IMG/VR virus record: IMGVR_UViG_2778261676_000006
Location: 1-10,688 of that record
Origin: a virus
Lineage: Duplodnaviria; Heunggongvirae; Uroviricota; Caudoviricetes
Length of the DNA stretch: 10,688 nt
Direction: 5' to 3' (one strand)
Shown one piece after another: positions 1-10,688 of this stretch. The number at the start of each line of letters is the position of its first letter. Position 1 is the first letter of the stretch. Position numbers and translations under genes: made by a program. The notes under the pieces are model-generated. The model did not search any database and was not told the origin of the DNA. It was given only the letters and a program-made list of their open reading frames with translations.

Positions 1-996
1 TTATGGACGCATTATGGACATTCCTGACACCGGGTTAAGAGTCACAGCATCTTGTAAGAAATCCGGTGCAAAGTGTGCGTAGGTCATAGTTTGCTGAATG
101 TTAGAATGACCCAGGATGCGCTGCAATGTGATTATGTTACCTCCATTCATTATAAAATGTGTGGCAAATGTATGCCTCAAAACATGTACTGCTTGTCCGT
201 CAGGTAAATCGGGTTTTACTTCCCTGAGAGCGTTACGCACTTTGTAGTAACTGGCATTAAAAAGCCTGCCTGAATTTTTGGTCTTGATCCGTTTAATCAG
301 GTCCTGCGAAACGGGAATTGTCCTGCGTTTTCCGTTTTTAGTTTTCATAAACGTAACCATCTGGTTAATGATGTGTTCAGCTTTTAAATTAGCCACTTCA
401 CTCCAGCGTCCACCAGTAGAAAGGCAGACCAGAGTTGCATTTAATTCATCACCATCAAGCATGGATAACAGCCGCGTAATCTCTTCACTGGACAAAAAAG
501 CCATTTCCGTAACAGCTTCACGTAACCGTTTAATCTCACGGAACGGGTTGTGAGAGTGGTATTCACCGGCGTCAATTAACTTGGTGAACATCCCACTCAT
601 TATTGCCAGATGTCGATTTACGCTGGCTGGTTTTAGACCATCGTTCATCATTACAACGCGATAATCAGTTATCGTTTTCTTTGTTAGCTGGTCAGCTCTG
701 GACACTCCCATTTCTGCAAATTTGGCGATTATTGTCGTTAAACGCCCCCGTTCAATATCTCCACGCTCATGTGATTTTCCGTGATATATCCACCATCTGC
801 CTAACAACTCTGTAAGAGTTCGGCGGTCGGCTGGTTTCTCCAACCACTCTTTGTTGTGGTAGTTAACCAGTACATGACGTTCGAATGCTTGAGCTTCACC
901 TTTAGTTTTAAATTTCCGCCTGATACGTTTTCCATCTGCACCCTGCGGTCTGACGTCCACTTCATAACGACCATCATCGAGCTTTTTAATAGACAT
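1..996 (-). CDS. int: P2-type tyrosine integrase (site-specific recombinase, phage integrase family)
   Basis: 331-aa ORF. C-terminal catalytic box HVLRHTFATHF...LQRILGHSNIQQTMTYAHF (conserved R/H/R/Y pattern of tyrosine recombinases). N-terminus MSIKKLDDGRYEVDVRP matches P2 Int as I recall it. Lies directly downstream of the repressor on the same strand, as in P2. Confidence 0.9.
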   Translation of the reverse strand: MSIKKLDDGRYEVDVRPQGADGKRIRRKFKTKGEAQAFERHVLVNYHNKEWLEKPADRRTLTELLGRWWIYHGKSHERGDIERGRLTTIIAKFAEMGVSRADQLTKKTITDYRVVMMNDGLKPASVNRHLAIMSGMFTKLIDAGEYHSHNPFREIKRLREAVTEMAFLSSEEITRLLSMLDGDELNATLVCLSTGGRWSEVANLKAEHIINQMVTFMKTKNGKRRTIPVSQDLIKRIKTKNSGRLFNASYYKVRNALREVKPDLPDGQAVHVLRHTFATHFIMNGGNIITLQRILGHSNIQQTMTYAHFAPDFLQDAVTLNPVSGMSIMRP

Positions 997-1089
997 AAAG
1001 CCCTCCGATGACGCTGTTAACTTCTACTACTTGAAAATTAATGCAATTTTCTTTCGTACATTTACTACACACATATGCTGAATAAATCG

Positions 1090-1389
1090 TCAGCCAGTCT
1101 TCTGGTCTGAGTGGTGCAAGGTTGTTGAGTCTTGCCCAATGTGTGCGAGAGCCGGGGCTATTTGTCCAGCTGCTGGATCTGTTTCATCAAACATGAACCA
1201 GTCACGATACTTGCGAAAGCGTGGATGCTTAAACAGCTTCATACCTGCTTCCATAGGCATTTTTGATTTTCCTGATTCATATCCATGATATGTGTAGTAA
1301 TTAATTCCAATTAATTCAGCAAGTTCCTTAGTTTTAAGGCGTTCGGATTCACGGATGAGCTTTAGTTTCTCACTTTGTTCACTTGACAT
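1090..1389 (-). CDS. C: P2 C-type immunity repressor (small HTH repressor)
   Basis: The track ORF 1090..1407 uses a TTG start. The internal ATG at 1389 gives 99 aa (MSSEQSEKLKLIRESE...), the length of P2 C. The C-terminal half GQIAPALAHIGQDSTTLHHSDQKTG closely resembles the P2 C C-terminus as I recall it. HTH-like segment LKTKELAELIGINYYTYHGYESG. Sits between int and the divergent cox gene. Confidence 0.75.
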   Translation of the reverse strand: MSSEQSEKLKLIRESERLKTKELAELIGINYYTYHGYESGKSKMPMEAGMKLFKHPRFRKYRDWFMFDETDPAAGQIAPALAHIGQDSTTLHHSDQKTG

Positions 1390-1407
1390 AATTTTGCTAA
1401 TCTCCAA

Positions 1408-1482
1408 TTATATTGTTACTTGGCAATTTGTGATTCACTCAAAAAGGCTCTAGATGGCTCCAGTTGGTGAATCGCAAATCTT
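1408..1482. promoter_or_regulatory. Divergent early promoter/operator region (Pc/Pe-like) between C and cox
   Basis: 75-bp AT-rich spacer between divergent genes. A TATAAT hexamer reads on the minus strand at about 1407-1412 (plus strand attata). Direct repeat aGGCTC / tGGCTC at about 1445-1450 and 1455-1460 (10-bp periodicity) flanks a TAGAT -10-like element on the plus strand, reminiscent of the direct-repeat operators bound by P2-family C repressors. Confidence 0.4.
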
Positions 1483-1497
1483 ATGGAGGATAGCAAA

Positions 1498-1854
1498 GTG
1501 ACGACAAATGTAGAAATTTCTTGTCCAACTAGCGATGAGGCAAGTTTCGAAAATGAAGCCAAACGTAAAAGCATTCAGATTTCAGAGCGCCCATCTGATT
1601 TGCTGTCGAAAGAAGGTTTTGCTCTTTACATCGGTAAGACACCACGCGCGGTGGCTGAAATGGCTAAAGCAGGAAAGCTGCCAGCCTTCTACATGACAGA
1701 CCCATTAAAACCAAGAGGGAAAGCTGAATTATGGATTAATCGCCGTGAGTGGGACAAGTACGCAGCCCAACTGGTTGATGAAGCTCCGACAGAATGGCAT
1801 GACTGGAAAAATCGCATTAGTTACAGCAAATCAAGACATGGCCGTGCGGCTTAA
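1498..1854 (+). CDS. cox: Cox-like excisionase / early-promoter regulator
   Basis: Track ORF 1483..1854. GGAGGA at 1485-1490 followed 7 nt later by in-frame GTG 1498 suggests the real start. Segment GKTPRAVAEMAKAGKLPAFYMTDP resembles the winged-helix core of P2 Cox (GKLPVIDMTDP as recalled). First gene transcribed divergently from C. Confidence 0.6.
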   Translation: MTTNVEISCPTSDEASFENEAKRKSIQISERPSDLLSKEGFALYIGKTPRAVAEMAKAGKLPAFYMTDPLKPRGKAELWINRREWDKYAAQLVDEAPTEWHDWKNRISYSKSRHGRAA

Positions 1855-2035
1855 GGTGGAAAGGATGAACGAGCCTCGTTGTATTGCTCTGTTATTGCGT
1901 AACGAAAGCCCCAGGGCGATTGACTTCACCATCACCCACGGGAAGGGACGCAAGGGAATCATTATCCGTACCAAAAAACAGAGTCCGTTAAAAAAGGCTC
2001 TGACCTTTCTGAAAAGCCGGAGGGTCTGGAAATGA
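1799..2035 (+). CDS. Small early-region protein (P2 orf78-like position), start uncertain
   Basis: Open frame 1745..2035 ends with ATGA overlap into gene B. Candidate starts are ATG 1799 (78 aa), ATG 1838, or ATG 1865 (preceded by AAGGTGGA, the best SD). The stop is firm; the start is not resolvable from sequence alone. Confidence 0.35.
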   Translation: MTGKIALVTANQDMAVRLKVERMNEPRCIALLLRNESPRAIDFTITHGKGRKGIIIRTKKQSPLKKALTFLKSRRVWK

Positions 2036-2532
2036 CAGTGATGACGCTTAACCTCGTCGAAAAACAGCCAGCAGCCATGCGCCGGATAATTGGTAAGCAT
2101 CTGGCCGTCCCTCGCTGGCAGGAGACATGTGATTATTATAATCAGATGATGGAACGCGAACGGCTAACGGTTTGCTTTCATGCGCAGTTAAAACAGCGTC
2201 ACGCAACGATGCGTTTTGAAGAAATGAATGACGTCGAACGTGAACGGCTGGTTTGTGCAATTGATGAACTGCGTGGGGCATTCTCAAAACGCCGTCAGGT
2301 TGGCGCAAGTGAGTATGCATATATTAGTTTTTTAACAGTCAGTCAGCGTCGCACTTTATTTATGCACGCACGACTGACAGAAAAAGAATTTAACCAGCCA
2401 TACTGGCGAATTAATGAGGAATCATGTTACTGGCGTGATGCTTTATTCCGTGCATTACGTGAATTATTCAGCCTGTTTGAGTATGCACCGACAATTCTGA
2501 CGTCGGTAAAACCAGAGCAATATCTGCATTAA
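2032..2532 (+). CDS. B: Replication gene B protein (P2 gpB family, DnaB helicase loader)
   Basis: 166-aa ORF; the sequence MT.MTLNLVEKQPAAMRRIIGKHLAVPRWQ...FEYAPTILTSVKPEQYLH matches P2 B protein as I recall it, and the length is the same. SD GGAGGG lies upstream; the start overlaps the upstream stop (ATGA). Confidence 0.85.
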   Translation: MTVMTLNLVEKQPAAMRRIIGKHLAVPRWQETCDYYNQMMERERLTVCFHAQLKQRHATMRFEEMNDVERERLVCAIDELRGAFSKRRQVGASEYAYISFLTVSQRRTLFMHARLTEKEFNQPYWRINEESCYWRDALFRALRELFSLFEYAPTILTSVKPEQYLH

Positions 2533-2552
2533 ATAATTAACCAGAGTTTTTA

Positions 2553-2581
2553 ACGCACTTAATCGTGCGGGGCTTCTTTTT
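2553..2581 (+). terminator. Weak hairpin plus T-tract between B and the next ORF (possible attenuator)
   Basis: cgcac-ttaatc-gtgcg 5-bp stem followed by gggcttcttttt. Short stem and interrupted T-run, so weak at best. Confidence 0.2.
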
Positions 2582-2595
2582 GCCTGGAGAAAGTC

Positions 2596-2820
2596 ATGCA
2601 TACAGTTTCTGAAAATCAGTGCGGTAAATACGCATTACTGCTGCAACAGGCCAGAACCGAAGCACAGGCCGACGCTGCGACGCGCTTTTCTTCTCATCTT
2701 GACGCCATGATTCGCCATATCACAAAGGCGGAGTTATCCCGCGTGGAGATAGTCGAGCTGCTCAGTCAGGAGTCGGAAAAATTTCACAATATCGGATTGT
2801 CTCGCGGGGAGGTGCTTTGA
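2596..2820 (+). CDS. Hypothetical early-region protein (P2 orf80-like position)
   Basis: 74-aa ORF with SD GGAGA upstream of ATG 2596; same strand and spacing as the small ORFs between B and A in P2-like phages. Confidence 0.65.
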
Positions 2821-3119
2821 TGTCCTGTTCTCATTCAATTGTATTACTGAATAACGCCTTAAAAATCGCCGTTATGAAAAATGGCGATTTATCTCTTATT
2901 CAACTTTGTCTTGATAAAGAAAAACGCGACATAACTGAATCTGTTATCGCGATTTATCAGAATGAATTAAACCTCCTGTCTGATATGGTCAATTTACTTG
3001 TTAAACGCGCTGTGTTCCACAAGCAAATTTCCTCAGTGGATGAACTGACAAAATTAACGACAGAACTCGCCAGTTATTGCGCTGATGTATCCAGGAAACT
3101 TAACGATAAAAGGAGCTGA
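2820..3119 (+). CDS. Hypothetical early-region protein (P2 orf81-like position)
   Basis: Track ORF starts at TTG 2817; ATG 2820 overlaps the upstream stop (TGATG), with SD GGGAGG upstream. About 99 aa. Confidence 0.65.
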   Translation: MSCSHSIVLLNNALKIAVMKNGDLSLIQLCLDKEKRDITESVIAIYQNELNLLSDMVNLLVKRAVFHKQISSVDELTKLTTELASYCADVSRKLNDKRS

Positions 3120-3121
3120 TA

Positions 3122-3223
3122 ATGCCGGACAACGTAGATTTTATTCAGGAACAACAGGCTGAATTACTGGAGCGCCAGATTAACGCGGCAAGGGTAAAAC
3201 ATTGCGGTGTTTCTGCGCTGGTT
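3122..3223 (+). pseudogene. 5' fragment of orf82-like gene (probable TraR/DksA-type zinc-finger protein), truncated at a deletion junction
   Basis: Good SD (AAAGGAG) and ATG 3122. The N-terminus MPDNVDFIQEQQAELLERQINAARVKHCG looks like the start of a TraR/DksA-like small protein, but the C4 zinc-finger cysteines never appear. After about codon 34 the frame continues as an out-of-frame reading of gene A sequence up to 3538. Confidence 0.45.
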
Positions 3224-3993
3224 ACCGTGAACTACGCAAATTGCCTCGCGGCGTCAGCATTGCTGATGAGTTTGACGAGCGCGTCGAGGCTGCACGCGCC
3301 GCCGCAGACAGTGGTGATTTTGCGCTGTATATCAGCGCGCAGGGCGGGGCAAATGTCCCGCGCGATTGTCAGACTGTCAGGGTCGCCCGTAGTCCGTCGG
3401 ATGACGTTAACGAGTACGAGGAAGAAGTCGAGAGAGTGGTCGGCATTTACGCGCCGCATCTCGGCGCGCGTCATATTCATATCACCAGAACCACGGACTG
3501 GCGCATTGTGCCGAAAGTGCCGGTCATTGAGCCTTTGACTTTAAAAAGCGGCATCGCCGCGCCTCGGAGTCCTGTCAATAACTGTGGAAAGCTCACCGGT
3601 GGTGATACTTCGTCACCGGCTCCCACGCCTTCTGAACACGCCGCAGCAGTGCTTAATCTGGTTGATGATGGTGTTATCGAATGGAATGACCCGGAGGTCG
3701 TGAGGGCGCTCAGGGGTGCATTAAAACACGACCTGAGAACGCCAAACCGTCAGCAAAGAAACGGAAGCCCGTTAAAACCACATGAAATTGCACCATCGGC
3801 CAGACTGACCCGGTCGGAAAGAATGCAAATTACCCGTATCCGCGTTGACCTTACTCAGAACGGTATCAGGCCGCAGCGATGGGAGCTTGAGGCGCTGGCG
3901 CGTGGCGCGACCGTAAATTATGACGGGAAAAAATTCACGTATCCGGTCGCTGATGAGTGGCCGGGATTCTCAACAGTAATGGAGTGGAAATGA
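3221..3993 (+). pseudogene. A: 3' fragment (about 258 codons) of P2-type replication initiator gene A, lacking the N-terminal two-thirds
   Basis: The 263-aa open frame has no credible start (opens at TTG 3202 inside the orf82 frame; no SD or ATG near its 5' end). The sequence ...YRELRKLPRGVSIADEFDERVEAARAAADSGDFALYISAQGG...TVMEWK matches the C-terminal region of P2 gpA as I recall it. Full-length A is about 760 aa. Confidence 0.7.
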
Positions 3994-4445
3994 TGGCAAA
4001 AATTCACGAGGTAAAGCTGCACGCAAAATATTTTGACCTTGTGCTGGAAGGAAAGAAACGCGCAGAGTTTCGGAAAAATGACCGTAATTATGAGCGCGGG
4101 GACACGTTGATTTTGCATGAATGGGTGCAGGGTGTGTATACGGGGCGAAAGGTTGAAGCCCGGATAACAGATGTTACTGACTTGTCAGACTGGCTGGAAG
4201 ATTATGTCTTGCTAAGTATTGAGCTGCTTAATACAGGCGCATATGAGTTTGTGAACTGGAAAGAACTTAGTGAGCGTGGTCTGGTATTCAGAATTAATCA
4301 TGAAATTATGCATCAGCTCGGCCTTGCTGTTGTGTATGAACCAGAGACGGGGATGTCTGGCGGGGCAGTGGTTGGTGCGGATGGGATATGGAACTATTCA
4401 GATGAACAGGTGGAGCGTGCACAGCAAAACGGGTGGCTTGGATAA
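3990..4445 (+). CDS. ASCH/DUF3850-like (PUA-fold) protein
   Basis: Track ORF 3957..4445; ATG 3990 overlaps the stop of the A fragment (ATGA). N-terminal KIHEVKLHAKYFDLVLEGKKRAEFRKNDRNYERGDTLILHEW resembles ASCH/DUF3850 domains common in phage early regions. Confidence 0.65.
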   Translation: MMAKIHEVKLHAKYFDLVLEGKKRAEFRKNDRNYERGDTLILHEWVQGVYTGRKVEARITDVTDLSDWLEDYVLLSIELLNTGAYEFVNWKELSERGLVFRINHEIMHQLGLAVVYEPETGMSGGAVVGADGIWNYSDEQVERAQQNGWLG

Positions 4446-4651
4446 TGCACAGAATACCAGGCGAGATACCGCAGCATAAAACTAAAAATATCAAGCTGAT
4501 GGCCATTGTTCACCGTCTACAGCAGATTATGGTCAACGAAAATCTGACGCCCGATGAGCTAGTCGGGTGTGCCGAAATAGTCCGGGATAATTACGTATGG
4601 CTTAACTATATCGGTCAGCCCAGCGCTGCACCGCCACCACGCAGACGATAG
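4445..4651 (+). CDS. Hypothetical small protein (68 aa)
   Basis: ATG 4445 overlaps the upstream stop (TAATG); GC-rich like the phage backbone. No recognisable motifs. Confidence 0.4.
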   Translation: MHRIPGEIPQHKTKNIKLMAIVHRLQQIMVNENLTPDELVGCAEIVRDNYVWLNYIGQPSAAPPPRRR

Positions 4652-4840
4652 AGAACGCAGCCAGCTCAGGATTGGCGGGGGATAGAATAACGAGCATAGT
4701 GATGCGATTAGACAAACAGACTGACTGGTACACTTAGGATGGTTATAGTGGTTTCTAAGTGCTTTAGCGATACATCTGGTGGACTGTTTTACCAACCTCA
4801 GAGTTAGCTGAATTTTTAACAAAATACCATTTTGATAGAT

Positions 4841-4869
4841 TTGCCTAATTTATTAATTAAACTATACTG
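4841..4869 (+). promoter_or_regulatory. Candidate sigma70-like promoter for the + strand cargo operon
   Basis: TTGCCT (about 4841-4846), 16-nt spacer, TATACT (about 4863-4868), in an AT-rich stretch about 90 bp upstream of ATG 4960. Confidence 0.3.
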
Positions 4870-4959
4870 GACTTATACACAGTGTTCTGTTAATTGTTAG
4901 GTTGGTAAGATATTGTGAGGAGGTGATTACTATCTTGGCATCAATCAAGTGGAGGTTAA

Positions 4960-5196
4960 ATGATGAATATATTTGAACGTATTATAGGTAAAGCTGCTAT
5001 TGAAAAGGAAAGAGAACTGGCGAGGAGGCTTGAAGCATCTGGAACAAACACTGTTGAGGTGGTAGGTCGAGGCGCGATTATCACGTCTAAAGAAGACTTG
5101 GCAAGCTCAGATACAGTAAAATTGATGAAAATTAAAGCAAGAAAAATAGTTTCTGAGCAGGTAAAGCAAGAAGAAAAAATGGCTAAAGGGAATTAA
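4960..5196 (+). CDS. Small charged soluble protein (78 aa), first gene of a two-gene cargo operon
   Basis: GGAGG at 4951-4955 precedes ATG 4960/4963. Lysine/glutamate-rich, no TM segment. The stop is 2 nt before the start of the next gene. Low GC. Confidence 0.6.
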   Translation: MMNIFERIIGKAAIEKERELARRLEASGTNTVEVVGRGAIITSKEDLASSDTVKLMKIKARKIVSEQVKQEEKMAKGN

Positions 5197-5198
5197 TA

Positions 5199-5960
5199 AT
5201 GTTTGCTTTATTAATTATTCCATTACTTGTGAGTGGTTATATTGTATTAACCACTCATCCTTATCATTTCTATAGATTACACCGTTATGATGGGCAGTTG
5301 TTATATATGAAGTCAGCCGCCTTTGGTCTGTGGTGTTTTATATGGACATTGATTATAGCTTACTTAATAAAATGGATATGTCCGAGCTTCCATCCTGTCA
5401 CGATGGTTCGGGAACAATTAGATCTCAAACTTAGTGACAATGGTACTGAAAGAATCATAGGATGGATGATTTTACTTTCATGTGGAACGATATTTTTGGC
5501 TTGGATATGGAGTGTCGGTGCTAGATATTTGGTTATATATAGAGCTAAAATTATAAATTATATCCAAGGGGTAAAGGCTGCCAATATTGATTATGAGAAT
5601 CTTGTCATGCTAAGGATGAGGCAAGAGCTTATTAATGATAATCCAATGGATGAAATATTTTTTGATTCGTTAGTTGATAGACGTTCAATACTTATTACGT
5701 TGCAAAATAAAAAGACATATGTAGGAATTGTTAACGCATTAGGTGAGCCTAACGAGAAAGAAGGACCTAACCAGTATGTTTCAATCTATCCTATTATCTC
5801 TGGGTATAGAGATAAGGATTCATTGAAAGTAATCTTGGTGAATGAATATAGAGAGCTTGAGGATGCTGATACTAGTATCATCTTTCCACTAAAAGAAATT
5901 TCGCAAGTTTCTTGGTTTGATATGGATATTCATAAAATAGTTGAAAATAATAAGGTGTAG
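5199..5960 (+). CDS. Predicted integral membrane protein (3 N-terminal TM helices plus a soluble C-terminal domain of about 145 aa)
   Basis: 253-aa ORF. Hydrophobic segments FALLIIPLLVSGYIVL, AAFGLWCFIWTLIIAYLIKWI and IIGWMILLSCGTIFLAWIWSV. SD AAAGGGAA upstream; tightly coupled to the upstream gene. Low GC. Confidence 0.7.
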   Translation: MFALLIIPLLVSGYIVLTTHPYHFYRLHRYDGQLLYMKSAAFGLWCFIWTLIIAYLIKWICPSFHPVTMVREQLDLKLSDNGTERIIGWMILLSCGTIFLAWIWSVGARYLVIYRAKIINYIQGVKAANIDYENLVMLRMRQELINDNPMDEIFFDSLVDRRSILITLQNKKTYVGIVNALGEPNEKEGPNQYVSIYPIISGYRDKDSLKVILVNEYRELEDADTSIIFPLKEISQVSWFDMDIHKIVENNKV

Positions 5961-5963
5961 TAA

Positions 5964-5988
5964 ATGGTCACCTATAAAAGGTGACCAT
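5964..5988. terminator. Bidirectional intrinsic terminator between the convergent cargo operons
   Basis: Perfect 9-bp inverted repeat ATGGTCACC-tataaaa-GGTGACCAT, followed by a T-run on the + strand (ttattttt) and flanked by an A-rich stretch (T-rich on the - strand). Sits exactly between the stop at 5960 (+) and the stop at 5994 (-). Confidence 0.55.
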
Positions 5989-5993
5989 AATGC

Positions 5994-8258
5994 TTATTTT
6001 TGACGAATCCTGATTTTTGGTTGTTCACGAACAACAATATCAGTTTCTTTCCAACCAAGATTATTTATTTCAACCTCGGCTTCGTTGTAGACTGTAGTAG
6101 AATTGGCAAGAGATCTTAACGTAATAGCCAATACAGCACGTTGAGGTGAAGATAGAGGCTCTTGCTCTGCTCGTCTCTGAACATCAAGTTTAAGTCTCCA
6201 TTGCTCCCCATTTATACCTTGCGGAAATTGTTTTCTATAAACTTTGACTGGAGACCATTTGAAGCCATTTTCTATCAGTACCTTTTCAAATAATTCACTC
6301 TTTTCTTTTATTTGTGGAATTTTTCCGCTATGTATCCATTTAGCGTTAACTGGATCATAAGTGTAAGTCCCGAATGACACATCCACATTAGAACGGCAAT
6401 ATTCGGATGGGTAGTCATAATCAAGCGGTGGAGAATAAACGAGTGTCATAATAATTTCACCTGTGAATTTTCCATCCTCAGTACGTAATGACTGTGGTAT
6501 TACAAATGGCGTTCTACTGAATTCAATACCTTCTCGGGTATCTATTTCAAATAGAAATGTAATCTCATTTTTATTGCAACCAATAATATCATTTATATGA
6601 TCGCTTGGGCGTCCAAATCCTTGATAATTAAACGCATAATGCTCCGTTTTGGCTGGTGAGTTTTTTAACGCAGAATGAATTAATAGTGCCTTGATACGTT
6701 CAGGCGATGGTGAAATAGAACCATTAACATCTAGTTCATGCCACAGTGATGCCGCTAAACTTGAGATTAACGGTGCTGATAAACTTGTGCCAATACTTTC
6801 GCAAAGAGCATTGTCCTCGCCAATAGCTATGATTCCGGTATGTTCACAGTTTAATTTACTGTCACAATTACCTCCAAAGTGATTTATCTCTGGTTTGGGT
6901 ATAAAGGCTGGGCCGGGACCTCTTCTAGAAAAAGATGAAGGTTCAAATCTTTTGACCACAGAGTCAGACGATTCTAAATGGGCAACTGAGCCAACAGTTA
7001 ATGAACGAACAGAATCTGCGGGGGCTGATATTCTGTCATGCCCACCTAATTCTTGAGGAGGCCAGGTTCGTTGAGGATCATAAATGTAGTTGCCGGATGC
7101 TACGACGAAAAGACAATCATGCTCATCATGAAGTGCATTTAAAAAATGCCCCAATTCAGAGAAGCTGTCTTCAGAACATGGGGATTGACAACCTAATGAC
7201 AGATTCCATACACGTACTTCTGGATAGGTGGTCACAGCCTCTCGGATAGCTTTCATTAATTGTGGCAATTTGAGCGTACCATCTTTGGGAAAGGCTGCAA
7301 CATCAACAATTTCAGCTTGGCATTGAGGAAAACCAGCATAGTTATTCAACCATCTTCCATTAATTGCTAAACTTGCAACCATGTTCCCATGAGAATAGTC
7401 GTGTTCTCCTTTTACTAAATCTAAACTATCCCAAATCCATGGCCTAAGTATGTTGTTATTGGGATCGACTCCGCTATCTATAATTCCGAGTAGTGGATAA
7501 TGTTTATCCTCTTGAGGTAAGGGAAAATCATCTAGGTCTAGAGTTTCAGCAGGAATATATTGCGATACTGTATGAGTAAGACCAAATGTTGGCATAGGTT
7601 CTAATTTTCGTATGCCAATAAAACTTGCCAGTTGGGCGATGTTATCATTCCCTTTTACTTCATATATACTCAAATCTGAACTGATATCATACTTTTTGGG
7701 TTTTTGTATTCCTAGTTCATCTGCAAATTCCATTAATTCTTTGTCGATACTGCGGTTAGTTGTTCTATCTTTATGGTCAAAGAGTTTCAGAAGAAAACTA
7801 TCTGATTTATTTTTATCTATAACATCATGGTTAAGACTAAAAGGTTCGATCTTTTCAATTACAGCAATATGTACTGTCCCATTATGAGAATTAGTGCTAT
7901 TTTCAATTTTTTTGCGAAGTTGTGCTAACCCTTTTTCAGTAACACTTATAAGTAATTCTCCAAAATTATCACTGCCTATTACGGGACATGTATTATCACC
8001 TAATAGGCTTGATGGGCGATGTGACTTAGCAAGAGCTTTTTCATGAAGAGTAACTCTAGCCACCGCCGGTATATTGGGCCATTTTTTAAATGAGCTCTGG
8101 AAAAAATTTTTAACGTCATCGACTTCTTGTTTGAGTCTATTTTTTAGACTAGTTGTTACTGTTCGGATAGGTTGTTTCTTTCCGAAATTATATGTTTTTT
8201 CAGTAAAATCTTGAGGTGTCGCCTCAATTATTTTTATTGGTCTTTCTTTGTTACTCAT
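5994..8258 (-). CDS. ietS: S8 subtilisin-family serine peptidase, cytoplasmic, with extra N- and C-terminal domains (IetS-like)
   Basis: 754-aa ORF. S8 catalytic motifs in canonical order: Asp LLGIIDSGVD, His HGNMVASLA, oxyanion Asn VVASGNY, Ser GTSLSAPLISSLAA. No N-terminal signal peptide (MSNKERPIKIIEATPQDF). The start overlaps the stop of the upstream ATPase (ATGA at 8255-8258). Confidence 0.8.
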   Translation of the reverse strand: MSNKERPIKIIEATPQDFTEKTYNFGKKQPIRTVTTSLKNRLKQEVDDVKNFFQSSFKKWPNIPAVARVTLHEKALAKSHRPSSLLGDNTCPVIGSDNFGELLISVTEKGLAQLRKKIENSTNSHNGTVHIAVIEKIEPFSLNHDVIDKNKSDSFLLKLFDHKDRTTNRSIDKELMEFADELGIQKPKKYDISSDLSIYEVKGNDNIAQLASFIGIRKLEPMPTFGLTHTVSQYIPAETLDLDDFPLPQEDKHYPLLGIIDSGVDPNNNILRPWIWDSLDLVKGEHDYSHGNMVASLAINGRWLNNYAGFPQCQAEIVDVAAFPKDGTLKLPQLMKAIREAVTTYPEVRVWNLSLGCQSPCSEDSFSELGHFLNALHDEHDCLFVVASGNYIYDPQRTWPPQELGGHDRISAPADSVRSLTVGSVAHLESSDSVVKRFEPSSFSRRGPGPAFIPKPEINHFGGNCDSKLNCEHTGIIAIGEDNALCESIGTSLSAPLISSLAASLWHELDVNGSISPSPERIKALLIHSALKNSPAKTEHYAFNYQGFGRPSDHINDIIGCNKNEITFLFEIDTREGIEFSRTPFVIPQSLRTEDGKFTGEIIMTLVYSPPLDYDYPSEYCRSNVDVSFGTYTYDPVNAKWIHSGKIPQIKEKSELFEKVLIENGFKWSPVKVYRKQFPQGINGEQWRLKLDVQRRAEQEPLSSPQRAVLAITLRSLANSTTVYNEAEVEINNLGWKETDIVVREQPKIRIRQK

Positions 8259-9418
8259 AATATCTCTCTATAGTTCTTAGTTAGCCTTGACACTTTAGCA
8301 TTTGAAAGCCCTAGTATTTTTGCTATCTTTCGTATTGTAAATCTTTTGGGATTGTATTCTCTGAGAGTGGTCACAATCTTTATAAGTAAATTATCTTCTT
8401 CATCAAATGTAACTCCCTTCGCTTCTAAGATAGCCTCGACTAAAAATCGGGTATCGATTTGTTTATTATTGTAAACCAGAGCATGTCGCTCAGATCTTAA
8501 GCAGCATTGTTCTATAAATGAGCAGTTTAGCCCTGATGATATTTCCGCAAGGTCATCAACAAAATCGTCATATGTAGCTTTTATGTTTGAATATTGTTCA
8601 AATAGTTGTTTTCTGACTTCAAAATTAGGCAATCCAATAGATATTCTATACTCAAAGCGCCTCCAAACTGCGCTATCTAGAAGATTTTCATGATTACTTG
8701 CAGCAATCAATATTGTTTCTTCAGGTAGATTGTCAATATTTTGCAATAAAGAAACCACCACCCTCTTCAGTTCACCTAACTCATGCTGATCATCTCTAGC
8801 CTTTGCTAGAGAATCTAGTTCATCTAGAAATAAAACACATGGTGCTTTACTTGCATACTCAAATAGCTGCCTGATATTTTTAGAAGTAGACCCCAGATAT
8901 GATGAGACTAAGGAGTCACATCTTGCAGTAAGAAGCGGTAAATTTAGACAGGATGCAATATATTTTGATGTCAAGGTTTTACCACAACCTGGTGGCCCAT
9001 ATAAAATCATAGAGGATGTCACGCCAAGACCGGCATCCTTTAATTCTTTAGCTCGTTCAGTGAAAGTCAAAAATTCTTTAATTTTTTTCAGAGTGCTATC
9101 TTTCAACAATGGGAGTTGAATTTCAGAAGACGGTTGAGTTACGTCTGCTAAATCAAATTTAGTTTCTTTATCTACAGGTAATGTATCAAGACGTTCAAAA
9201 ATAGGTGATGTACTGCGTGATACTTTCTGCAAGTTAAACGTGTTTTTATCTTGAATACTACCTCTAATGGCTGAAGCAAGCTCAGGCAGCCCCATAGAAT
9301 CATAGGAACGCGCGAGTTTCGAAGCCTGCCGAACAAAAGCAACTTTATCCCCTTTGAGTCCAAGACTGATAAGCTGCGAAAGTATCTCGTTTGTGGTCAT
9401 TTGTGATACAAACCTCAT
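8255..9418 (-). CDS. ietA: AAA+ ATPase with C-terminal HTH-like tail (IetA-like)
   Basis: 387-aa ORF. Walker A GPPGCGKT (about 8975-8998), Walker B CVLFLDELD, sensor-1 LIAASNHEN, probable Arg finger in VWRRFEY. C-terminal IRKIAKILGLSNAKVSRLTKNY resembles a helix-turn-helix. Translationally coupled to the downstream S8 peptidase. Confidence 0.8.
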   Translation of the reverse strand: MRFVSQMTTNEILSQLISLGLKGDKVAFVRQASKLARSYDSMGLPELASAIRGSIQDKNTFNLQKVSRSTSPIFERLDTLPVDKETKFDLADVTQPSSEIQLPLLKDSTLKKIKEFLTFTERAKELKDAGLGVTSSMILYGPPGCGKTLTSKYIASCLNLPLLTARCDSLVSSYLGSTSKNIRQLFEYASKAPCVLFLDELDSLAKARDDQHELGELKRVVVSLLQNIDNLPEETILIAASNHENLLDSAVWRRFEYRISIGLPNFEVRKQLFEQYSNIKATYDDFVDDLAEISSGLNCSFIEQCCLRSERHALVYNNKQIDTRFLVEAILEAKGVTFDEEDNLLIKIVTTLREYNPKRFTIRKIAKILGLSNAKVSRLTKNYREIL

Positions 9419-9600
9419 TAATCTGTTGTCTAAATGGCTTATAGGTGAGACAAATTTCTATTTTAATGTAGTTTATATGTATTTTGGTGAAACGAACACT
9501 ATGTTTTACATAAATCTTTCAGGTTTGGAGTTCTTGGAGGGCATAGAGTTGCATCAATTTGCATTCTAATTAGACTTTTTTATTGCTATCGTATTCTACA
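9419..9600 (-). promoter_or_regulatory. AT-rich upstream region, presumed promoter of the ATPase-peptidase operon
   Basis: About 180 bp of AT-rich non-coding sequence upstream of the ATPase start on the minus strand, with several -10/-35-like hexamers; no single promoter can be assigned by eye. Confidence 0.3.
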
Positions 9601-9659
9601 TGTGACTAGGTCTGCCCTTCCTGATGCGTTTGCATTAAAACCTCCCCATGAAGCGGGCG

Positions 9660-9678
9660 GGCGAGGCGGGGAAAGCAC
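9660..9678. other. cos site (19-nt cohesive-end sequence of P2/P4 type)
   Basis: GGCGAGGCGGGGAAAGCAC matches the P2/P4 cohesive-end sequence as I recall it. It lies where cos is expected, between the cargo and the portal-side end of the genome. Confidence 0.6.
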
Positions 9679-9810
9679 TGCGCGCTGGCGGTGGTGCTGA
9701 TTTTATTTTTTCAGCGTCTGAGCGCGTCGTGATGGCGTTTAGATTGTGTTCCGGGGCCTGCGGGATGTTTTGCGCGGAGGTGAGCGTGTGAGGGCGTGAT
9801 GACGGGGTGT

Positions 9811-9832
9811 AAAAAAGCCGCCCGCAGGCGGC
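9811..9832 (-). terminator. Minus-strand intrinsic terminator (in P2 would end the leftward portal/terminase operon)
   Basis: On the minus strand: GCCGCC-tgcg-GGCGGC hairpin followed by TTTTTT (plus strand reads aaaaaa gccgcccgcaggcggc). Confidence 0.45.
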
Positions 9833-9938
9833 GATGTTCAGCCGTTGTCAGTGTCCAGTGAGTAGTTTTTAAAGCGGATGACCTCCTGACCGAGCCAGCC
9901 GTTTATTTCCCGAATCCTGTCCTGTAGCCTCCCGTAAC

Positions 9939-10688
9939 AGGCTGGAAGCCAGTGTCGCTCCGTCACTGGCCGGAATTAAAATCCCGCACATCGACCAGTC
10001 GCAGGAGTCTGATGCAAAATTCCTGACCCGCCTTGCTGAACGCAACGGCGGTGAGGTGTCGGTAAAAATGGGAAAATTGTTGTTTCTCAAAGCGGGGCAG
10101 GGGGTGACGGCCAGCGGTAAAAAAATCCCGCAGATTACCATCGCCCGCAGCGACGGCGACCGTCATCATTTTGCGATTGCTGACCGTGGAGCCTACACCG
10201 GCGTAACGGCAAAGTGGTTACACACCAAAGACCCGAAGCCACAAAAGCAGAAGGTAAAACTGAAACGCAAAAAGAAAGAGAAACACCTGCGCGCACTGGA
10301 GCACCCGAAAGCGAAACCGGTCACGCAGAAGAAAGCGCCAAAAGTACCGGAAGCGCGCGAAGGTGAATACATGGCCGGTGAGGATGACAATGTTTTTGCC
10401 CTGACCACGGTATATGCCACGAAAGCGCAGGCCATGCGCGCCGCTCAGGCGAAGTGGGATAAACTGCAACGGGGCGTTGCGGAGTTCTCCATCAGCCTGG
10501 CTACCGGTCGGGCAGATATTTACACGGAAACACCGGTTAAGGTGTCAGGCTTTAAGCGTGTCATAGACGAGCAGGACTGGACCATCACTAAGGTGACACA
10601 TTTTCTGAATAATAGCGGCTTCACGACGTCCTTAGAGCTTGAGGTCAGGCTTTCTGATGTGGAGTACGAAACAGAAGATGATGAGTGA
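9939..10688 (+). pseudogene. D: 5'-truncated tail gene D (P2 gpD / phage late control D family), C-terminal part only
   Basis: The frame opens right after a stop at 9936-9938. The sequence IKIPHIDQSQESDAKFLTRLAERNGGEVSVKMGKLLFLKAGQG...SLELEVRLSDVEYETEDDE matches the C-terminal region of P2 gpD as I recall it (full length about 387 aa). The first standard start is GTG 10056 (track ORF 10056..10688). Only about 260 bp separate it from cos, with no N-terminal coding sequence. Confidence 0.75.

Follow-up and report, generated by a model that had tools for sequence, protein, structure and literature searches.

The window, that is, the whole stretch of 10,688 nucleotides analysed here, carries early genes, defence genes and the packaging site of a P2-like phage, followed towards its right-hand end by fragments of two late genes. 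From position 68 onwards (68-10688) it is base-for-base identical to the final 10.6 kb of contig NONG01000007.1 (188,492 bp), which belongs to the draft E. coli assembly GCA_002518955.1. On that contig the genes to the left of the window run in the order dmsC-ycaC-ycaD-ycaM-ycaN-ycaK-pflA, with pflA directly left of the integrase gene that opens the window, and related strains carry this insertion between pflA and pflB. These relatives include the P2-like prophages of two complete E. coli genomes, DCE7 (CP090611) and E302 (AP022362), which occupy the same pflA-pflB site, bear IetAS and are 98-99% identical to window 1-9926 (98.4-99.3% over int, C, cox, B, the IetAS hotspot and cos). Beyond the stop codon of gene D the contig runs on for only 23 bp, breaking off within the D-ogr spacer, and the right flank (ogr, attR and pflB) lies outside it; ogr and attR of the element would be expected further to the right. 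The arrangement is that of a cryptic prophage, in that a phage-derived block sits at a known att locus, its essential genes are deleted or truncated, and the host gene pflA flanks it on the left.

Early genes and defence cargo

The genes that define the integration, immunity and defence functions of the element are the following.

1-996, minus strand: integrase, 331 aa, full-length (Pfam Int_N and Phage_integrase)
1090-1389, minus strand: C-type repressor, 99 aa, full-length (Pfam HTH_19, below the Pfam cut-off)
1483-1854, plus strand: Cox, 123 aa, full-length (Pfam Phage_Cox)
5994-8258, minus strand: IetS, S8 peptidase (PADLOC, E=1e-273, full-length model match)
8255-9418, minus strand: IetA, AAA ATPase (PADLOC, E=1e-131, full-length model match)

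The lengths of Int, C and Cox equal those in the complete prophages of DCE7 and E302, and their amino acid identities to the P2 counterparts are 53%, 51% and 35%, respectively, values low enough to place the element in another immunity and integration type than that of P2. Also retained are a full-length B gene, orf78, orf80, orf81, the orf91/DUF3850 gene and small genes of unknown function. With P2 proteins as tblastn queries, the early order, which runs int-C-cox-orf78-B-orf80-orf81 and, further on, A-orf91-hotspot-cos, matches that of a P2-like prophage, and the B-to-orf82 and A'-orf91 stretches are 95-96% identical to P2 at the nucleotide level.

The IetA and IetS genes are adjacent on the minus strand and overlap by 4 nt. 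P2-like phages have a cos-proximal hotspot between gpA and gpQ (PMC9122126), and it is in this hotspot, between A/orf91 and cos, that the IetAS pair is placed. A first reading of the same DNA, made from its letters without database searches (the sequence-only reading), had proposed that the element kept its packaging site, immunity, integrase and defence cargo, and this is borne out by the full-length open reading frames of int, C, cox and IetAS and by the unaltered cos core described below.

Two further hotspot genes lie beside IetAS on the plus strand, within window 4960-5960. They encode products of 78 aa and 253 aa that belong to PHROGs 37504 and 3630 (function unknown) and that gave no Pfam or PADLOC match; they may represent additional accessory or defence cargo. 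The hotspot as a whole is AT-rich, its GC content being 36.6% where the remaining segments of the window have 43-57%.

The cos site and the joint between genes Q and D

The right-hand end of the window, in which all P2 coordinates refer to the annotated phage P2 genome NC_001895, holds the packaging site and what is left of the late genes.

9631-9685, plus strand: cos core, about 55 bp, including the cleavage site (three-way alignment with circularised P2 and P4)
9660-9678, plus strand: cohesive-end sequence GGCGAGGCGGGGAAAGCAC, 19 nt, identical to the annotated P2 cosL and cosR (19/19)
9832-9817, minus strand: tQ, rho-independent terminator of the P-Q operon (terminator scan; stem GCCGCC/GGCGGC, then TTTTTT)
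9838-9926, minus strand: 3' stub of portal gene Q, its last 89 nt, made up of 28 codons, the stop codon and 2 nt (P2 alignment; Q is P2 187-1221)
9925-9926, no strand: deletion joint, TA common to the Q and D sides, a 2-bp microhomology (base-by-base comparison; the BLAST segments overlap by 2 bp)
9927-10688, plus strand: 5'-truncated tail/baseplate-hub gene D, codons 135-387 and stop (P2 alignment, gpD alignment, Pfam Phage_GPD)

The cohesive-end sequence occurs once in the window, with no match in 200 shuffles and none expected by chance, and the linear phage records R18C and HQ103 have as their first base the one that corresponds to window 9660. In the alignment with P2, window 9631-9678 corresponds to 33546-33593, at the right end of the phage genome with cosR, and window 9660-9926 to P2 1-275, which takes in cosL, the annotated tQ (P2 160-181) and the last 89 nt of Q. 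The extent given for the core, 9631-9685, comes from the P2/P4 alignment made here together with the 55-bp figure for the core common to P2 and P4 in PMC9594776, where that figure is itself second-hand. The flanks of cos are conserved from 9631 to about 9740, and the few substitutions in the core are also found in the prophages of DCE7 and of E. coli O157:H16 strain 98-3133 (CP051001). Alignment of the motif to the P2 cos site, which the sequence-only reading had named as a check on its call, gave this match, and both the retained cos site and the minus-strand terminator said to close the Q-P operon beyond it are where that reading had put them.

At about window 9757/9758, where a spacer separates cos from the Q terminator, the window has a 10-bp gap relative to P2, DCE7 and 98-3133 (GTTGGTGTGT in the relatives). 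This gap lies outside the 55-bp core, and at least one phage record, vB_EcoM-12474V, aligns over the same stretch with no net length difference.

Leftward on the minus strand, the Q stub reads in a frame with its stop codon at 9838-9840, and all of its 28 residues are identical to gpQ 316-343 (28/28). At 9925-9926, about 266 bp past the start of cos, Q gives way to D, as window 9925-10688 aligns to P2 23191-23954, or D nt 401-1164, that is, from nt 401 to the stop codon. A base-by-base comparison in which the Q region of DCE7 and the D region of 98-3133 served as the parents found no extended homology, IS sequence, repeats or inverted repeats at 9925/9926, and an IS-mediated origin of the deletion was rejected for want of an IS sequence, inverted repeat or extended homology at the joint. 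The D stub has 96-98% nucleotide identity to D of P2-like phages; only residues 134-387 of gpD can be aligned with it (248 of the 254 amino acids identical, 98%), the Pfam Phage_GPD match covers profile positions 103-304 of 305, and stop codons at 9870-9872 and 9879-9881 shut the D frame on its upstream side. The gene caller places an ORF of 206 aa at 10068-10688, the same product being called on the source contig, and a scan of 9400-10688 found no sigma-70-like promoter for the D remnant.

In P2 coordinates the deletion takes out 276-23190, a length of 22,915 bp; against the DCE7 prophage, the closest complete one, it amounts to 20,627 bp. When all P2 proteins were compared with the window by tblastn, only Q 316-343 and D 134-387 were left of the late gene set Q to D, and there was no match in the window to P, O, N, M, L, X, Y, K, lysA, lysB, R or S, nor to V, W, J, I, H, G, FI, FII, E, T or U. 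The loss of the late genes from Q to D makes the element a defective derivative rather than a functional member of the P2-like phages.

Most of what the sequence-only reading had said of this end of the window holds. It had the sequence entering the middle of a 5'-truncated D about 260 bp past cos, across a junction somewhere within 9869-9977, with the entire structural module gone. The joint is now mapped to 9925/9926, where D nt 401 is reached, a full-length D with an alternative upstream start is absent, and the genes from Q to U are missing in the alignments with P2 and related prophages as well as by tblastn. Its statement that the element had lost all virion genes is correct for this locus and extends no further than the locus, as the contig ends 23 bp after D. 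It was mistaken in taking the frame that ends at 9869 for a possible 3' remnant of Q: the real stub is the frame ending at 9838, and the ORF ending at 9869 is a spurious antisense frame that crosses the joint by chance.

A second deletion in replication gene A

A second deletion, absent from the earlier reading, removed two-thirds of gene A.

3222-3223, no strand: second deletion joint, TT microhomology (base-by-base comparison, P2 alignment)
3222-3993, plus strand: 3' remnant of replication-initiator gene A (window 3222-4213 aligns to P2 29548-30539)

The missing sequence corresponds to P2 27650-29547 (1,898 bp) and comprises the 3' two-thirds of orf82, orf83 and nt 1-1514 of A, and around the joint tblastn recovers only residues 1-35 of orf82 and 503-760 of A. 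An intact A is not present, and its remnant is without the native start codon. The ori nick site has been kept (P2 29892, window 3566), in the middle of 61 nt that match P2 at every position (61/61). As at the first joint, the base-by-base comparison found no extended homology. With most of gene A deleted the element is defective in replication as well as in virion production, and by itself it would presumably be able neither to make virions nor to replicate.

The right breakpoint of the second deletion (window 3222-3234) lies 5-7 bp from the point at which ISEc12, an IS21-like element, is inserted in gene A of the closest relative, the E302 prophage (positions 7135-7140 and 9719 of locus L007, with a 6-bp target duplication, GAGCTA). 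A simple IS-mediated deletion is a poor fit, since no IS is present in the window and 5 nt to the left of the ISEc12 target site have been kept, and the proximity of the two sites may reflect either coincidence or a local breakage hotspot.

Origin and relatives of the remnant

Taken together, the region is very probably a scar on the right-hand side of a cryptic, that is, defective, prophage of the P2 type that resides beside pflA on the E. coli chromosome, and that arose by a single deletion between Q and D and a separate deletion in A. One illegitimate-recombination event in the integrated prophage would have joined Q, 89 nt before its stop, to D nt 401 by way of the shared TA, taking out about 20.6-22.9 kb and with it all capsid, terminase, lysis, tail and baseplate genes, while a separate 1.9-kb deletion of the same type, with its TT overlap, would have destroyed gene A. 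The loss of costly or lethal functions such as lysis, virion formation and replication may have been tolerated or even favoured, with immunity, integrase and defence cargo staying behind. The remnant still has full-length int, C, cox and B, the ori nick site, IetAS and a cos core without alterations, together with Q, D and A as dead stubs. In this setting the cos site would owe its survival to its place between the retained cargo and the breakpoint, 266 bp from the latter on the retained side, and not to any use made of it, and the likely roles of the remnant in its host would be superinfection immunity and anti-phage defence.

The D stub is 97.0% identical to D of DCE7, as against about 99% for the left 9.9 kb, which points to a mosaic relative, rather than DCE7 itself, as the immediate ancestor. 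To the right of cos, in window 9735-9926, the sequence variants are those of 98-3133 rather than those of DCE7. Judged by these patterns of identity, the ancestor would have been a recombinant mosaic with a boundary near cos. A history in which a newly integrated prophage came to lie beside a pre-existing D'-ogr remnant was also considered; it still needs the same illegitimate event to produce the joint between Q and D, and is not a separate explanation.

One has to ask whether the joint at 9925/9926 could be an artefact of assembly or library preparation, that is, a chimeric short-read join in a genome whose prophage is in truth intact. The source contig is indeed from a draft assembly and breaks off 23 bp past D, and the joint was found nowhere else in the collections searched: a 301-nt query across it had no place covering both sides among 5,426 complete E. 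coli genomes, its 22-mer had no exact occurrence in GTDB species-representative genomes or in JGI metagenome contigs, and exact look-ups of the antisense ORF 9869-10141, of the extended Q-frame ORF 9838-9966 and of the GTG-start D remnant returned nothing from the collection. Against this, de Bruijn mis-joins would need a k-mer in common, and no more than 2 bp are shared at this joint; an intact prophage, in turn, should offer a competing path and hence a contig break at 9926, whereas the joint is internal to a 188-kb contig. Moreover, the second, independent deletion scar is recovered on three contigs, a Logan re-assembly among them, and the truncated D ORF on two. The former is seen as the 263-aa ORF that spans the second deletion and has a junction-specific N-terminus (three contigs, NCBI and Logan), the latter as the 206-aa ORF (two contigs), and these are counts of contigs, not of strains, as the contigs may come from one isolate. 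We consider an artefact very improbable, and the joint has the look of an event that is recent and confined to one lineage.

Another proposal is that the remnant is a working, P4-sized, cos-bearing defence island. Its own Int and Cox would excise it, and a P2-like phage that superinfects the cell or already resides there, whether or not a P4-type satellite is also present, would package it and thereby spread IetAS; such an element would be a satellite in the making, derived by deletion from its helper. In its favour are an unaltered cos core, full-length int and cox, and an ori nick region that matches P2 throughout (61/61); the length estimated for the whole element, about 11.1-11.2 kb, is close to the 11.6 kb of P4 and to one third of the 33.6 kb of P2. 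It has also been reported that P2 transduces plasmids that carry the P2/P4 cos (PMC9594776), and that cosmids of 5-10 kb are packaged into P4-type capsids (PMC2231350). On the other hand, the element is known from one strain background only, its non-functional Q, D and A stubs fit random decay and not a streamlined satellite, and it is without a replication initiator of its own. The A protein of P2 is known to act mainly in cis, and repressors of the P2 type are not known to be SOS-inducible, both of which count against mobility. None of the P4 proteins (0 of 13), sid, psu, delta, epsilon and alpha included, has a homologue in the window by tblastn at E<=0.01. Satellite P4 does have in common with the remnant the 55-bp cos core, a similar size of about 11 kb, an integrase of its own and a defence hotspot beside cos, but the remnant clearly derives by deletion from a phage of the helper type and does not belong to a satellite lineage. 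We regard such helper-dependent mobility as highly unlikely, and only if it were true would an unaltered cos beside defence cargo carry weight.

The cryptic-prophage reading, by comparison, has parallels among known elements. At the same pflA-pflB site, the prophage of 98-3133 has the same architecture, from int-C-cox through to A-hotspot-cos, and there too an internal deletion took most of the structural module and left cos, D and ogr. That deletion is an independent one, which connects a truncated terminase gene P to a point just before U (positions 14649-15417 of locus L001), and unlike the remnant described here the 98-3133 prophage has intact Q, U, D and A, other cargo, and an IS30 between cox and B. 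The prophage of DCE7 retains the whole Q-to-D module (20.6 kb) and a full-length A, with several tail genes annotated as frameshifted, while that of E302, compared as far as gene P, differs in having ISEc12 inserted in A. A further likeness is offered by PR-X of E. coli K-12 (ogrK and the D pseudogene yegZ, NC_000913 2167183-2167811), which is likewise a P2-family remnant with a 5'-truncated D, followed in PR-X by ogr, and whose D stub (219 nt) aligns to window 10476-10688 with 95.8% identity. PR-X is only 629 bp long, sits at another chromosomal site and is without int, immunity, cargo and cos, the remnant in the window being the larger; its breakpoint in D lies about 550 nt further downstream, and the two are independent events. 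The element is in this sense a genuine but ordinary cryptic prophage remnant, a further, independent and unusually tidy case of a known type.

It is nevertheless a well-resolved case of P2-type prophage decay, in which two microhomology deletions left immunity, integrase and defence behind. This pattern agrees with the established picture of prophage domestication, and its weight beyond annotation is small. For annotation it calls for some caution, as the called 206-aa 'late control D' and 263-aa 'replication endonuclease' are pseudogene stubs. As both the gpA and the gpQ anchors are truncated, surveys of hotspots anchored on these proteins (as in PMC9122126) would probably miss this IetAS locus.

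The length of the whole remnant, about 11.1-11.2 kb, is an estimate, because a search for direct repeats between both prophage ends in 98-3133 (CP051001) yielded no att core; the only match was one of 10 bp within the pflA flank, which was judged to be due to chance. The contig break itself falls in the D-ogr spacer (positions 10622-10644 of locus L003, 23 bp beyond the end of the window). A break at this point suggests that the ogr region is repeated elsewhere in the source genome, in another P2-type prophage or a PR-X-like remnant, and its position 23 bp after D is what one might see if the genome carried a second P2-type copy.
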